Source of the DNA: a virus | Lineage: Duplodnaviria; Heunggongvirae; Uroviricota; Caudoviricetes | IMG/VR virus record: IMGVR_UViG_2541047880_000004 | Location: 1 to 38,694 of that record | Direction: 5' to 3' (one strand) | DNA: 38,694 nt | Part shown: one piece after another, positions 1,807 to 20,025 of the stretch | Layout of the letters: each line of letters opens with the position of its first letter | How positions within the stretch are numbered: the first letter of the stretch is position 1 | The notes under the pieces: generated by a model | What the model was told of the DNA's origin: nothing | Seen by the model: only the letters and a program-made list of their open reading frames with translations | The model's database searches: none | Position numbers and translations under genes: made by a program

Positions 1807-1954
1807 TTAATTTGCTCCAGATAGAAGGAATCGCCGCAGCATTGCCGCAGTGATGCATTTTTAATCAAAAAAAATACGACCACCGTGGTCTTATTGAGGA
1901 TGAAACCAGCAGATAATAAGATGCCGATCCACTCACAAAAGCGAGGCATCAAGA

Positions 1955-2206
1955 ATGGGAAGAGATGACCCGCAATTTAATCTGCGGCTACCTTACGAAT
2001 TAAAGGAAAAACTAAAACAGCGAGCCAAATCCAATGGCCGCTCTCTTAATTCAGAATTAGTTCAGATAGTGACTGATGCTGTATCAAGGCCATCCAAAAT
2101 TTCAGGCTATCGAGACGATGCGGAACGCATCGCTGATGAGCAGTCAGAGCTTGTTAAGAAGATGGTGTTTGATACGCTGAAGGATTTGTACAAAAAACCC
2201 ACCTGA
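1955..2206 (+). CDS. mnt: Mnt repressor (ribbon-helix-helix)
   Basis: 83 aa; MGRDDPQFNLRLPYELKEKLKQRAKSNGRS...DAERIADEQSELVKKMVFDTLKDLYKK closely matches remembered P22 Mnt. Confidence 0.85.
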   Translation: MGRDDPQFNLRLPYELKEKLKQRAKSNGRSLNSELVQIVTDAVSRPSKISGYRDDAERIADEQSELVKKMVFDTLKDLYKKPT

Positions 2207-2221
2207 TGGTGGGTTCCATTT
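2192..2221. terminator. Candidate bidirectional rho-independent terminator between mnt and the minus-strand lipoprotein gene
   Basis: AAAAAA-CCCACC-tgat-GGTGGG-TTCCATTT; A-run on one side and T-rich run on the other; overlaps the mnt stop codon. Confidence 0.5.
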
Positions 2222-2222
2222 A

Positions 2223-2642
2223 CTAGTCTTGCTTTGTGGACGGTATAAGGGATGCATTTGCCTCTTTAGGCTTCAAGGTATACATCCCGCCATTAAATGG
2301 ATCTACAGCAAGCCAACCAATTAACCCACCAAACACAAGGTTTCCACCAATATACCAACCATTAGCATTGGCTTTGATTGGCAGGGTAACTGGTTCGTAC
2401 CCATCCTTCTCCATAGTGATCTGGTAGCTCTTTTTGCCAAAATAACTACCATCTGACTTGGCAAGAGTTACTCCTTGCGGGGTCTTACCTTGCGCAACAA
2501 TCACGCCTGATTCGTCTTTTACCTTAAAGCTCGCGCCGGAAGGATTGCTGTTCACTTGCACAAGCTGTGTTTCGTCACCAACAATAGTTGCGCACCCAGA
2601 TAACAATATAGCGCCAGCAACGACGCCGATAATCCTCTTCAT
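2223..2642 (-). CDS. Lipoprotein of unknown function (moron)
   Basis: 139 aa; N-terminal signal peptide with lipobox LLSGC; no homologue recognised. Confidence 0.7.
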   Translation of the reverse strand: MKRIIGVVAGAILLSGCATIVGDETQLVQVNSNPSGASFKVKDESGVIVAQGKTPQGVTLAKSDGSYFGKKSYQITMEKDGYEPVTLPIKANANGWYIGGNLVFGGLIGWLAVDPFNGGMYTLKPKEANASLIPSTKQD

Positions 2643-15314: not shown

Positions 15315-16814
15315 TTAAGTTCTCCGTGCGATGGGCCTGATTGGGGCTGGTATCTTTTTCTCTTTTGGTTTTTTGATGTCGCGCATCATTTTTGCGAAGC
15401 GGCGCATCATGTATGCATAGCGAACGGCGGATAGCACGTCGTCGTTAAGCTTGACGATCTTCCCGTTTTCATCACGGTGATAGAGGCGGAACTCCTCAAA
15501 GAATGGCTCACAGGTGTTGAATACTTTGAAGCGACCATCGAGCATCATGTCTCGCAATTCAGTGATGCCAGGCTCAACAGCATTACCGCCATCAGGCCAT
15601 GTCGCATGCTCCTGCAACATCATAAATCCAGCGTCTGCATACTGCCCTTTGAGCTGCTCACCACCGCCCTTCTCATGCTGGTTTCCGTCATGAGGCCATG
15701 CGGTTGGCACTTTATGCGCCCATGATTTAACAGCTCCCCACGCCTGAACGGCTGTCTTTTCTTTCGCCTTCCACACGCGTGAAACGTATATTGTGTCTGC
15801 GTCCTTATCCCACCAAAGCTGAACCTGCGCCTGCGGGTGATCCCATCCGAAATCCATCCCGCCAATTACGTAGAAGTGATCAGGGCACTCAAACGGCTGA
15901 CACTTAATCGTCTCTTCCGGTATCTGGAAGATTCGCCCGCTACCCATCGTAGGAATACCGCGAGCACGCGCCTCTCTCTCATGCTCAGGATAGGATGCGA
16001 TGATTTGCTCTTTCTGCTCGTCGGTGTAGTGCTCAGCGTCATAGATGGTCATGTTGACCACTTTCTGCGACTTGCTGGGATTCTTCAGGAACTTGGTAAC
16101 AACGTCAGACATCCCCATCAGCGGGGTAAACGTCAGAATTGAGAATTGCCCGTATTTGTTGGTACGGGTAAGACCTTCGCCATAAATGCTGTATGGTGGC
16201 TCTTCGTCAAACCACACGCCGTGGATTGTGTCACCCTGCCAGCGAGCACGGCCTTGCGAGTATGGCTTGAAGTAGCAGATTGAAATGCCATCTTCAACGC
16301 CATCAGCCGTGTGATGCTTAACCAGAAGATGATCAACAAGGTTCGGAAAGAAAGGAGACTTCTTCCAGCTAATGATGTCCTCTTTCGGTATTGAACCGTA
16401 GCCCGGTTCATCATTCTCTTCAATACGACCGCACAGGATGCGTTGAGTCGTTTTGGTTACCGTCTCGTTTGTCTCGCCGCCAATCCAGAAGACAACAGGC
16501 TCATAGAAACGCTTACCTTTCCACTCACCGCCATATTTACCATCAGCAGGATAGCCTTTTGTGCCCGGATAACGCCCTGTAAGGTGAAACGCGACTTCAG
16601 CAGCACCAGTAAATGACTTACCAAGCTGGTTACCAGCCATAAAACATCGCTCTGGATAGTCATGTCCGGCGTCGATGAACTCACGCTGTTTGCTGTATGG
16701 CGTAAATTCATATAGCAGGTGTGTGTTCCGGTAGTTATCTTCTTCTTCGAGTAGCTCGAGCAATTCGATTTGCTCTTCGTCGCTCAGGTTATCAAGAATC
16801 GCGTCCAGTTCCAC
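15315..16814 (-). CDS. Terminase large subunit, P22 gp2-like
   Basis: 499 aa, same length as P22 gp2; synteny. Confidence 0.9.
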
Positions 16815-17286
16815 GGTTGAATAGCTCCTTGATACGAGAGCGCCGCTTATCGCGATCTCCCTTATCAGGTGTCACGTCTTCAACTTGCGACTGCTCTTTG
16901 AGGCCCAAATCACGGGCGATGATGTTAGCGTTGAGAAGGTCAGCGGCAGCGCCAGAGAATTTCTGGTCGTAGATGACCTGTTCTGCTCGCGTAACGACTT
17001 CAGATAAATCTTCTCGCAGGCGATATGTGCGCCATGTTTCAAGCGTCACATCAATGAACAGAGTGAGGCCGGTAATGGTCATCGCTCGCATCTTGGCGAT
17101 AGGCTCTTGTATCACTTCACCCTGATACGAGAACGCCTTCATCTCCCATAGCGGGTTAGCTTCCACCCACTCGAAGTATTCACAACAAGCAGCCCACAGC
17201 GCCTCAGGCGATTCGAATTTAGGGTTTCGCCCATGACTACTGCGGGCCTCCCAAAATCGGTTGCCCTTTGGTGCTGCCATATTCAT
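16792..17286 (-). CDS. Terminase small subunit, P22 gp3-like
   Basis: ...[38 protein letters not shown]... matches remembered P22 gp3; true start may be the Met two codons in (17280). Confidence 0.85.
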
Positions 17287-17484
17287 CTCACTTAGTTGTC
17301 ATTTCAGGTTGAGGACTCTTTCGCGCCTTCAATCAGTGACTGCTTCAGCAATTCGAGTGTGCCAATCGCCTCACATAAACTGATTTCACCATCGTAATCA
17401 TGAATGACGCTTTCCAGCCGCTCATATAGCTCTTGAGTAATTGGGAATTTCTTCTCCTTACCCAAATTGATTACGCGGCTCACA

Positions 17485-17709
17485 TCATGTTCCGGTAGTG
17501 AACAGGTCTAACGCTTCCTTCGATTTACGCACCGCTTCGATTGTGCGGGTCGTGATATCTGAATTAGCGCCGCCTGACTGGAAGTGAATTTTGAATAGCT
17601 CAAGCTTCAGCTCGTCAGTACCAATGAATTGAAATGCTTCCTCGGCTGCTGCGTTCTGGTTCATGACCAGTTTATAAATCTCTAACTGGAATTTCTGTTC
17701 TTCAGTCAT
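17485..17709 (-). CDS. Hypothetical protein
   Basis: 74-aa ORF between lysis cassette and terminase; no homologue recognised. Confidence 0.45.
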   Translation of the reverse strand: MTEEQKFQLEIYKLVMNQNAAAEEAFQFIGTDELKLELFKIHFQSGGANSDITTRTIEAVRKSKEALDLFTTGT

Positions 17710-18084
17710 GGGAATAATCTCTGCTATTGTTGGCTCCGTTTATCCGTTAAAAGGGATGTCAGTTAAGTTATCCCGTGTAGGGTATAAGCCATTGTCGAGA
17801 CCACTCATTGAATGGCCTCTGCAATAACCGATGTCTTTCCATCAGTCCGCCACCACAAAGAATCTTTTTTGCCATAAGGCTGGAGGTTCATCTTTCAGTG
17901 GCTGCCAGTGTTATTTCCCCACTTACTGGCTTGTGTTGTTTCGTGGTGCTGCCGTAACTGGTTACCCAGAATAAATTCCGGTTTCATTATCAAGCCCACC
18001 CGTAGATGGGCTTTGTAATGGATAGCCGTTGCTCAGTTCTCGTAATGCTTTGATTTTCCCGATAACGCAGTTTTGCGTTTGCCA

Positions 18085-18606
18085 TCAGCACGCGATATCG
18101 AGAGTCAACTGCAGTTGCTCGCGCCAGTACTCGACATTTGCTTCAATAACCGGCTTATCCCATCGCCAGCGAGCCATCTCTCTTGCCCCATTGCTGGCTT
18201 TTGATTTCCGGTCATCGCGAATGCGACATGCTTGCTCATATTTCTGCTGCTCAGTCAGTTCACCGCGAAGCAGACTATCAATGTGCAGGTCGCACCACAC
18301 AGCAAAACGAGCATCACACCAACGGGCAAATGCAACTGAAAGTTTTGGATGTAGCCACGTACCACCCCCCCTGTCCTTTCGTGCCTTGCTGGTTTTTACA
18401 TACCTCGATTGTGAGGGATGTAAAATTTGAGATTCTTTCCCGGTCAACGCTTCGTCTAAAGCACGAACGTATTCAAGCGTTTCTGCCAAACGCATCCAGT
18501 TATCAATGCGTTTCCCAAATCTCTCAGCAACACCTGTGACGTTGATCCAACCATCAGTGTTGAAACTGACAAGTTCACCTTTGTAATTAAGTGGCACGAT
18601 ATTCAT
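18085..18606 (-). CDS. KilA-N domain protein
   Basis: 173 aa; ...GWINVTGVAERFGKRIDNWMRL...RGGGTWLHPKLSVAFARWCDARFAVWC... fits the KilA-N pattern. Confidence 0.65.
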   Translation of the reverse strand: MNIVPLNYKGELVSFNTDGWINVTGVAERFGKRIDNWMRLAETLEYVRALDEALTGKESQILHPSQSRYVKTSKARKDRGGGTWLHPKLSVAFARWCDARFAVWCDLHIDSLLRGELTEQQKYEQACRIRDDRKSKASNGAREMARWRWDKPVIEANVEYWREQLQLTLDIAC

Positions 18607-18807
18607 AACGTTTACCTACCATTTGAAATGAACCTTTGCCGCATAGGAAACCAGCCCACCGAGGCTCGCCAGCACTAACTGGTATCCTCAAAGGCCCATT
18701 CCAAAGGGGCAGGTTCGGTGTAAAAAACATGCGTTGCGGTACGCATTTATTGCAAAAAGCCCCGCATCGCGAGGCTCATTAAATGGACTTTGTGATTTGC
18801 AAAAAAA

Positions 18808-19245
18808 TTATTTCAGGCATTGCGTCCTGATGTATTCCTGCAGGTAGTTAACCTGCGCGGTTATCCTGTCGATTCCACTTCGGAGACGGTAATAATTGAG
18901 TTCAGCATCTGCTGTAAGTCTTGGGCTTTCTCCATCGCCCATGCTGCTGGCTCCGGTCGTTGACTTTGCACAGGTGGCGGCGACTTGCAGGCGCTTGCGA
19001 CCAGCAGAAACATCAGCACGGAGACTTTCGATAGTCGCGTTAGCATCAGCAAGCTCCTTTGTGTATCTGGCGTCGAGTTCTGCTACATCACGTTGACGCT
19101 TCTGCATGTCAGCGATTATGGATGCGGCTTTGTCGCGCTGCTCTTTATAGGCGATGGCGTTATCACGGTAATGATTAACAGCCCATGACAGGCAGACGAT
19201 GATGCAGATAACCAGAGCGGAGATAATCGCGGTGACTCTGCTCAT
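18808..19245 (-). CDS. Rz: Rz i-spanin
   Basis: 145 aa; N-terminal TM segment; follows R; lambda/P22-type spanin. Confidence 0.85.
18861..19052 (-). CDS. Rz1: Rz1 o-spanin lipoprotein, embedded in Rz in alternate frame
   Basis: 63 aa; lipobox LVASAC, Pro-rich; wholly inside Rz. Confidence 0.8.
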
Positions 19246-19718
19246 ACCTCAATCTCTCTGACCGTTCCGCCAGCTTCTTTGAATTTTGCAATCAGGCTGT
19301 CAACCTTATGCTCGAACTGACCGTAACCAGCCCCCGGCAGTGAAGCCCAGATATTGCTGCAACGGTCGATTGCCTGACGGATATCACCGCGATCAATCAT
19401 CGGCAAAGCGCCACGCTCCTTAATCTGCTGCAGTGCCACAGCGTCCTGGCTTTTCGGAGAGAAGTCTTTCAGGCCAAGCTGCTTGCGATAGGCATCCCAC
19501 CAACGGGAAAGAAGCTGGTAACGTCCGGCGGCTGTTGATTTGAGTTTTGGGTTTAGCGTGACAAGTTTGCGAGGGTGATCGGAGTAATCAGTGAATAGCT
19601 CACCACCTACAATGACGTCATAACCATGATTTCTGGTTTTCTGACGTCCGTTATCTGTTCCCTCTGACCACGCCAGCATATCGAGGAACGCCTTACGTTG
19701 ATTATTGATTTCCACCAT
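19242..19718 (-). CDS. R: Endolysin (lytic transglycosylase), lambda R
   Basis: 158 aa; [39 protein letters not shown]... near-identical to remembered lambda R. Confidence 0.95.
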
Positions 19719-20025
19719 CTTCTACTCCGGCTTTTTTAGCAGCGAAGCGTTTGATAAGCGAACCAATCGAGTCAGTACCGATGTAGCCGATGAACACGCT
19801 CGTTATATAAGCGAGATTGCTACTTAGTCCGGCGAAGTCGAGAAGGTCACGAATGAACCAGGCGATAATGGCGCACATCGTTGCGTCGATTACTGTTTTT
19901 GTAAACGCACCACCATTATACCTGCCGCGAAGGTACGCCATTGCAAACGCAAGGATTGCCCCGATGCCTTGTTCCTTTGCCGCGAGAATGGCGGCTAACA
20001 GGTCATGTTTTTCTGGCATCTTCAT
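19702..20025 (-). CDS. S: Holin, lambda S
   Basis: 107 aa; [43 protein letters not shown]... matches lambda S107. Confidence 0.95.

Follow-up and report, generated by a model that had tools for sequence, protein, structure and literature searches.

Organization of the late operon

The DNA analysed here, referred to as the window, is a stretch of 38,694 nucleotides from a tailed phage (Caudoviricetes), and positions refer to it unless another locus is named. The region under study is the late operon of a P22-like phage, with all of its genes on the minus strand. In the order of transcription, it is composed of a holin gene (19702-20025), a lysozyme gene (19242-19718), Rz (18808-19245), a gene with a KilA-N domain (18085-18606; Pfam PF04383, E=1.9e-21), a gap of 375 bp in the ORF map (17710-18084), a DUF2560 gene that corresponds to P22 orf80 (17485-17709; Pfam PF10834, E=1.1e-42, and P22 annotation), an ORF of 59 aa (17304-17483), and the genes of the small (16792-17286) and large (15315-16814) terminase subunits. 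The late transcript of P22 is known to span the lysis genes and to continue through this region into the head genes (PMC2629481). In the gap, therefore, the sense strand of this long mRNA is the minus strand.

A preliminary description of the window had placed the gap at these same limits, without a convincing ORF and without AT-richness, and all three statements were confirmed: the G+C content is 45.6%, against 47.7% for the window, so that the gap is not AT-rich. In relatives the start codon of orf80 is at position 17727, 18 nt further upstream than in the ORF map, and the canonical intergenic gap is thus 357 bp long. This canonical start (17725-17727, minus strand) is preceded by a GGAG ribosome-binding site (17734-17737), and reads ATA in the window and ATG in the aligned relatives. 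As the next in-frame ATG (17709) has no obvious ribosome-binding site, orf80 may be poorly translated in this phage, or may use a non-canonical start. A second gene-free stretch, of about 200 bp, lies between Rz and the KilA-N gene (18607-18807). It is conserved upstream of the differing genes that take the place of KilA-N in other phages, and its translation recurs in relatives as a spurious N-terminal addition to those genes. Our scan called a single terminator-like site (18653-18666, minus strand), which is inside this second stretch.

The gap is non-coding and widely distributed

The ORF map of the gap contains only ORFs of 33-49 aa, and no coding signal was detected in relatives. In the two best minus-strand ORFs, the variable sites across relatives are distributed over the three codon positions as 11/10/6 and 9/6/10, and the relatives have lost start codons and carry premature stops, indels and frameshifts. 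Neither a three-base periodicity of substitutions nor a frame that is intact in relatives was found, and the 35-aa ORF diverges in sequence after codon 15 in relatives with an inserted gene (Gp49) downstream. The 30/34-aa and 35-aa ORFs were accordingly rejected as genes on the basis of their substitution pattern, indels and stops. The gap is non-coding.

Matches to the gap sequence were found in 192 phage records, with 80-99% identity, and 2,342 of 5,426 complete Escherichia coli genomes (43%) match at least part of it. The sequence, hereafter the linker, is also present in the phages HK97, HK022, HK620, Sf6 and P22. The records of these five phages annotate no feature for the gap with the exception of orf25 in P22, and among the 192 phage records and 2,342 E. 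coli genomes no gene is called inside it apart from N-terminal extensions of DUF2560. P22 orf25 (1830-1907 of the P22 locus) has its ATG in the loop of a hairpin copy, the type B described below, and runs on through the conserved block that follows; it is probably not a real gene. One of the extended DUF2560 genes, a CDS of 118 aa in Salmonella phage vB_SalP_ABTNLsp11242 (1243-1599 of its locus), was rejected as an in-frame run-on into the normal orf80 of 80 aa. It is over-extended N-terminally across hairpin B and the conserved block, and its true start is the internal MAEIT... The region is not discussed in the genome papers of phages epsilon34 and L.

A family of hairpins in the linker

The preliminary description had reported a hairpin, AGCCCA/cccgtaga/TGGGCT (17993-18012), which is real, with support from a covariance model and from folding. 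It forms the core of a longer hairpin (17984-18021) with a lower stem of 5-6 bp, a 2x2 internal loop, an upper stem of 9 bp and a loop of 4 nt, and a further copy at 17789-17827 had been missed. The first copy (type A, minus strand) reads CCAUUA-CA-AAGCCCAUC-UACG-GGUGGGCUU-GA-UAAUGA and scores 60.3 bits (E=4e-14) against our covariance model R1. The second copy (type B, minus strand), which we call the 'empty-slot' form, reads UUAUUG-CA-GAGGCCAUUC-AAU-GAGUGGUCUC-GA-CAAUGG and scores 60.4 bits (E=3.9e-14). On the opposite strand the scores are 17 and 10 bits, respectively. A search of all 38.7 kb of the window with the model gives these two minus-strand copies in the gap and no other. The comparison of relatives identifies the second copy as a diverged version of the first, 194 nt downstream of it, and further versions sit behind inserted genes in other phages. 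In total, 141 sense-strand copies were collected from 91 related loci, each locus having one or two, and in every case the lysis genes lie on one side and the packaging genes on the other. The two copies of the window are also present in HK620 and HK022; neither DLP12 nor Qin, two prophages of E. coli K-12, has any. None of the phage records examined annotates the family, and Rfam lacks it.

All types share the same architecture, with a lower stem of 5-6 bp (CCAUUA/UAAUGG), a conserved 2x2 internal loop of CA opposite GA, an upper stem of 9-10 bp with a conserved U.G pair, and a loop of 3-6 nt. Nearly every variant keeps the internal loop. Some common variants have a broken lower stem (A>C at position 6 of type A, n=27; T>C at position 5 of type C, n=18). 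A fourth type, D, was found in two loci (L006, 1970-2008; L027, 2191-2229), with upper stems CAGCCCUUC/GAGGGGCUG and GAGCUCUUC/GAGGGGCUU and with the lower stem and internal loop unchanged; the downstream genes of these two loci differ as well.

The minus-strand RNA of the first copy has a predicted folding energy of -20.6 kcal/mol (z=-5.2), and none of 200 shuffled sequences was as stable. The sense strand is the more stable one in all three common types, with sense/antisense energies of -20.6/-16.1, -18.9/-10.2 and -16.0/-13.9 kcal/mol, and the fold of the whole gap has z=-5.27 on the minus strand versus z=-3.35 on the plus strand. Among 48 distinct hairpin sequences, 96% of the cells in stem positions are paired, a percentage that is inflated because the first collection of instances required complementarity. 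Nine of the 16 pairs have changed on both sides, the covariation score was reached by none of 500 shuffles, and the signal is lost when the partners are slid against each other. A set collected with the covariance model gives the same pairing figures, but that set is fitted to the model. One pair of the lower stem is A-U in 29 and G-C in 12 sequences, and at one pair the G.U of the window's type B lies between A-U and G-C variants. Within types, the transitions at Watson-Crick pairs of the upper stem are eight C>U, which keep a wobble pair, and no G>A, which would break the pair. Compensatory changes, wobble changes and strand asymmetry, the marks of a structured cis-acting RNA, are thus all present, in a small number of independent types with closely similar sequences.

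These patterns support selection on the base pairing of the hairpin, with wobble pairs confined to the late-operon sense strand. The loci, mostly from prophages of E. coli, Shigella and Salmonella, are close relatives of one another, and the covariation therefore comes from about four hairpin types that are phylogenetically non-independent. Since G.T wobble is tolerated in single-stranded DNA too, the strand bias fits RNA and sense-strand single-stranded DNA alike, and the excess of C>T on the non-template strand could be partly mutational. The preliminary description had also considered that the region might align to ordinary intergenic sequence of related phages with no conserved structure. 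It does align to intergenic sequence, whereas the absence of structure is contradicted by the covarying hairpin.

Trailer, spacer and conserved block

The part of the gap next to KilA-N (18022-18084, minus strand) is a 3' trailer that moves with the KilA-N cassette, and is common only to relatives having this gene; homology to relatives without it begins at gap positions 60-69. The fold of the trailer contains a small hairpin, AACGCA/aaac/TGCGTT (18064-18079). Between the two main hairpins lies a conserved spacer (gap positions 123-255; 17830-17962, minus strand), which in relatives precedes a second cassette slot. The spacer ORFs show no three-base periodicity and contain indels and stops, and as the spacer is nearly invariant no structural inference can be drawn from it. 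Just past hairpin A (columns 44-70 of alignment A2, about 17955-17981), the spacer has two alleles with many adjacent differences, which predict different small hairpins, CUGG-GUAA-CCAG and GUUAAUU...AAUUAAC; HK97 has the second allele. The spacer ends at the empty junction of the second slot (17828-17830, minus strand), located by comparison with five relatives (L026, L061, L078, L034 and L017).

The second hairpin leads into a near-invariant block of about 52 nt (17739-17790, minus strand; GGCUUAUACCCUACACGGGAUAACUUAACUGAYAUCCCUUUUAACGGAUAAA). This block always stands directly 3' of a hairpin of type A, B or C, is near-invariant whatever precedes it or comes next, and ends at the Shine-Dalgarno sequence of the first gene of the packaging module. 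It has stops in all three frames (17758-17770 and 17740-17742) and a weak hairpin, GGGAU(A)/(U)AUCCC, and by itself is not significantly structured (z=-1.8). The gene past the block is DUF2560 in P22-like phages and another gene in HK97-like phages, Stx phages and O157 prophages. The block was found in HK97, HK022, Sf6, HK620, CUS-3, Stx phages and O157 prophages (strain Xuzhou21 and Sakai Sp3). In an RNAalifold prediction of the whole linker, none of the 77 predicted pairs has a compensatory change, because the full-length relatives are nearly identical. As judged from the alignments, only the two hairpins are structurally supportable in the linker, and only by comparing hairpin types.

Accessory genes at two cassette slots

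Hairpins of types A, C and D begin 0-63 nt past the stop codon of at least 12 unrelated genes, which include KilA-N, two kinds of Rha, T5orf172/MUG113, a Tad2-like gene, the Gp49/Sf6-gene-66 family, a trypsin-like peptidase and several small ORFs. These genes occupy two positions. Slot 1 holds KilA-N in the window, and in relatives Rha, T5orf172/MUG113, the Tad2-like gene, the trypsin-like peptidase or small ORFs stand in its place. Slot 2, which precedes the second hairpin, is filled in relatives with a gene of the Gp49/Sf6-gene-66 family (PGAP 'Gp49 family protein'; Pfam PF13876) or with others; in Sf6, it is gene 66 that occupies it. Type B is the form seen where no gene is inserted. The arrangement of the window, type A, spacer and type B with the slot empty, was found in 54 loci, and type A, spacer, gene and type C in 44. 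Other loci have a single B or a single C. In 23 loci hairpin A is fused straight to the block, the product that is expected of recombination between hairpin copies. Genes in both slots lie between two genes that are adjacent in related phages, as morons do. Morons also have a promoter and a terminator of their own; no sigma-70-like promoter or canonical terminator was found around the sense-oriented cassettes, and only pid of P22 has both.

When the window is compared with more than 200 related loci, homology breakpoints accumulate on either side of hairpin A, at the 5' edge of hairpin B and in its middle, and where the block ends. Starts of high-scoring pairs peak at gap positions 60-69 (111), 120-139 (87) and 250-289 (118), and their ends at positions 100-119 (70), 250-259 (52) and 340-349 (54). 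The recombination boundary suggested in the preliminary description is borne out by this clustering at hairpin edges and block end, and by the differing genes inserted at the junctions.

A moron in reverse orientation, pid, splits the 52-nt block of this linker in P22 and BTP1. It is expressed from a weak promoter of its own, with a long 5' UTR, and its terminator/3' stem-loop is needed for transcript stability (PMC8835761). The pid cassette of P22 is about 630 bp long. The RefSeq record of P22 (NC_002371) lacks a pid gene; a 104-aa ORF (1947-2261, minus strand of the P22 locus) contains the published Pid start (MSDIEQKIAHLEDI...).

Several slot-1 genes deserve mention for their own sake. The Tad2-like gene (Thoeris anti-defence; PF11195, E=3.9e-26) is found in L036, L019 and related loci, and other relatives carry the T5orf172/MUG113 protein or the trypsin-like peptidase. 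Slot 1 looks like a hotspot of defence and anti-defence genes. In Salmonella phage SEN22, a frameshifted transposase/IS element (784-1931 of its locus) replaces the slot-1 gene about 200 bp upstream of the linker.

Search for promoters, terminators and small RNAs

The preliminary description had raised a promoter and a small RNA as possible contents of the gap, and neither was found. No sigma-70-like site was detected on either strand between 17200 and 18700, where 1.9 would be expected by chance, and scans for sigma-70 promoters and terminators found none in the gap or at the equivalent sites of Sf6. The covariance-model search that had been proposed as a check gave, with the Rfam 15 families, no match at E<=1 in 17000-19000 and none at the gathering threshold in the whole window; the families include the phage small RNAs AgvB, AsxR and STnc100. 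A scan for tRNA and tmRNA genes was also negative. For a small RNA, the gap thus has no Rfam match and no promoter/terminator pair; the BTP1 transcriptome has no small RNA annotated at the equivalent site, and the Hfq-bound EcOnc RNAs listed for O157 include none at the Sp3 copy.

Some named candidates were considered and discarded. AgvB, AsxR, EcOnc and Pas RNAs are located near PR' (AgvB and AsxR 3' of PR') and the holin gene, and none of STnc6000-6070 of BTP1 maps between the lysis and terminase genes. Possible promoter hexamers in TTGATAAT and a possible IHF site in the block, read by eye, do not match the consensus spacing.

Discussion

The linker is a real element, conserved, structured and non-coding, and its location, a moron hotspot or module boundary, is of a known kind. 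We propose, with a probability of roughly 55%, that the gap is the non-coding scaffold of a hotspot of accessory genes ('morons') between the lysis cassette and the packaging/head module of lambdoid phages. This scaffold would be composed of Rz, a leader, a first cassette, hairpin A, a spacer of about 155 nt, an optional second cassette, hairpin B or C, the block of about 52 nt and the ribosome-binding site. As slot 1 is occupied by KilA-N and slot 2 is empty in this phage, the scaffold appears as a gene-free gap of 375 bp. On the late transcript, which is antiterminated by gp23/Q, the hairpins would work in cis as the stem-loop at the 3' end of each cassette, blocking 3' exonucleases and possibly providing a site of processing or attenuation that would uncouple the expression of the cassette from that of the packaging genes. 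Because the same sequence of about 40 nt stands at every junction, we infer that the hairpins and the invariant block also serve as homology patches, at which homologous recombination could swap, insert or delete cassettes with the neighbouring genes unharmed. The stops in three frames and the ribosome-binding site would then reset translation for the first gene of the packaging module, whatever stands upstream. The role assigned to the hairpin in cis on RNA is derived from substitution patterns alone. The extreme conservation of the spacer and of the 52-nt block is outside the explanation offered by this scaffold, and could reflect recent spread rather than function.

Other roles of the hairpins have to be weighed against this proposal. 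Ordinary intrinsic (Rho-independent) moron terminators would stop transcription from a cassette promoter in the lysogen and be read through by the antiterminated late polymerase. Their position directly 3' of accessory genes fits the definition of morons, the GC-rich upper stem of 9-10 bp with its loop of 3-6 nt and energy of -16 to -20.6 kcal/mol is what a terminator stem-loop requires, type C is followed by UUUGAUAAU, and intra-operon terminators of unknown role have been predicted in the P22-like phage L (PMC8022706). The run of U is missing, however: the tails of the hairpins are UUGAUAAU, CUCGACAA and UUUGAUAA, with two to four U in the 8 nt after the stem, and type B (CUCGACAAU) has none. 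The scan calls no terminator at either hairpin of the window or in Sf6, and no sigma-70 promoter was found upstream of the cassettes of the window and Sf6. Moreover, the 3' tail pairs with upstream sequence in a lower stem that covaries (A-U 29, G-C 12), which is unexpected of a U-tract. The hairpins are not canonical terminators, and this reading is unlikely. In its lower stem, its 2x2 CA/GA loop, its upper stem of 9-10 bp and its location behind a gene, the hairpin is reminiscent of irregular RNase III substrates such as those of T7 and lambda sib. A processing or retroregulation site of the lambda sib/tI type, whose full lower stem would be present only in read-through late transcripts and whose cleavage would separate or destabilise the cassette mRNA relative to the packaging mRNA, agrees with the selection on lower-stem pairing and with the internal loop conserved in nearly all variants. 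Yet a duplex of about 16 bp is short for RNase III, whose substrates have about two helical turns, and the element was not found in DLP12 and Qin, the two prophages checked of K-12, the strain in which RNase III targets have been mapped. We regard such a site as rather improbable; by analogy, a sib-like mechanism is attractive as a special case of the scaffold that we prefer.

The hairpins could also act as DNA, as single-strand or cruciform recombination signals for a recombinase (attC-like) that makes the cassettes actively mobile. The precision of the junctions, with the hairpin 0-13 nt past the stop codon of many unrelated genes, the strand-specific wobble, which also fits a folded sense DNA strand, and the arrangement classes, which are consistent with recombination between hairpins, would all agree with this idea. 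It is nevertheless improbable: no recombinase was found among the cassette genes scanned against Pfam, R and L boxes like those of attC were not noticed, the breakpoints are scattered across the hairpin and the sequence on either side, as homologous exchange would leave them, instead of falling on one nucleotide, and general phage recombination needs short homology only (PMC2839356). That the gap encodes a small RNA with a regulatory role, or that the packaging genes have a promoter in it, is very improbable. The strong structure of the sense strand (z=-5.27) and a weak hairpin followed by UUUU (17749-17774) speak in its favour, but the U-run is replaced in some relatives, neither an Rfam match nor a promoter-like site was found, BTP1 has no small RNA annotated there and the Sp3 copy no Hfq-bound RNA listed, and the late promoter of P22 is single and far upstream (PMC8022706). 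The idea of a pseudogene remnant, a decayed protein-coding gene, takes its start from an ATG at 17875 that opens the 35-aa ORF and from which one relative annotates the N-terminus of a DUF2560 protein of 118 aa. Since that product is an in-frame run-on into the ordinary orf80, periodicity is lacking, disruptions in relatives are many and the same sequence is intergenic in the curated records of HK97, HK620, Sf6 and P22, we find this origin scarcely credible.

The element is very common, with parts of the gap in 43% of complete E. coli genomes as well as in the model phages HK97, HK022, HK620, Sf6 and P22. As the linker marks a hotspot of variable accessory genes (Tad2-like anti-Thoeris, Rha, KilA-N regulators, pid), a search with its sequence is a simple way to find such genes. 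If the RNA role of the hairpin is true, the linker would be a new cis-regulatory element in the lambdoid late operon, and a tangible case of the 'linker sequences' that modular phage evolution postulates; if that role is not confirmed, the element is an ordinary mosaic joint. The surprise is modest, and its use is as a marker of the accessory-gene slot.

Comparison with known systems

Morons of lambdoid phages are a concept of Hendrix and Juhala. The nearest worked example, the pid locus of P22/BTP1 (PMC8835761), is like the cassettes described here in having an accessory gene between genes that are adjacent elsewhere, a 3' stem-loop and the same linker. The orientation of pid is opposite to that of the late operon, and it has a promoter and a canonical terminator of its own; the cassettes here run in the sense direction, with no detected promoter and a stem-loop without U-tract, and one hairpin family is reused at every junction.

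The 'boundary sequences' (bsq) of HK620 and Sf6 and the linker sequences of modular phage evolution are, like our linker, short conserved sequences at mosaic joints between modules. The linker is not an annotated bsq in Sf6 or HK620 (the Sf6 record has a bsq7 feature 1.2 kb upstream, inside Rz), and differs in having a covarying secondary structure, which a plain homology patch does not need. Like the linker hairpins, lambda sib/tI and the RNase III hairpins of T7 are irregular, contain an internal loop and follow directly on the 3' side of a gene, in the transcript of an antiterminated polymerase; the duplex of the linker hairpin is shorter, and the likeness is one of architecture alone.

In T4-type phages, a repeated intergenic stem-loop, the PeSL (promoter-early stem-loop; PMC2839356), flanks variable ORFans in a hyperplastic region and also has G-T pairs in its stems. 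PeSLs have been proposed to insulate transcription and to supply homology for gene insertion, deletion and replacement, and they mediate ORFan shuffling (PMC2839356). The linker has in common with them a repeated stem-loop that flanks variable ORFs, with breakpoints in or beside the element, but no internal early promoter was found in it. PeSLs have a strong sigma-70 promoter, an effective terminator and tens of copies per genome, whereas the linker hairpins have no promoter and no canonical terminator, and occur in one or two copies per genome at one locus of temperate lambdoid phages. A bolder reading, which we hold to be quite unlikely, would make the hairpin and block a dedicated cassette-exchange and insulation system of lambdoid phages, the temperate counterpart of the T4 PeSLs. 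A strand-selected structure of RNA or single-stranded DNA, and not homology alone, would then direct the insertion of anti-defence and accessory genes, and would uncouple their expression from the packaging genes post-transcriptionally, for example by RNase III-type processing of read-through late transcripts.
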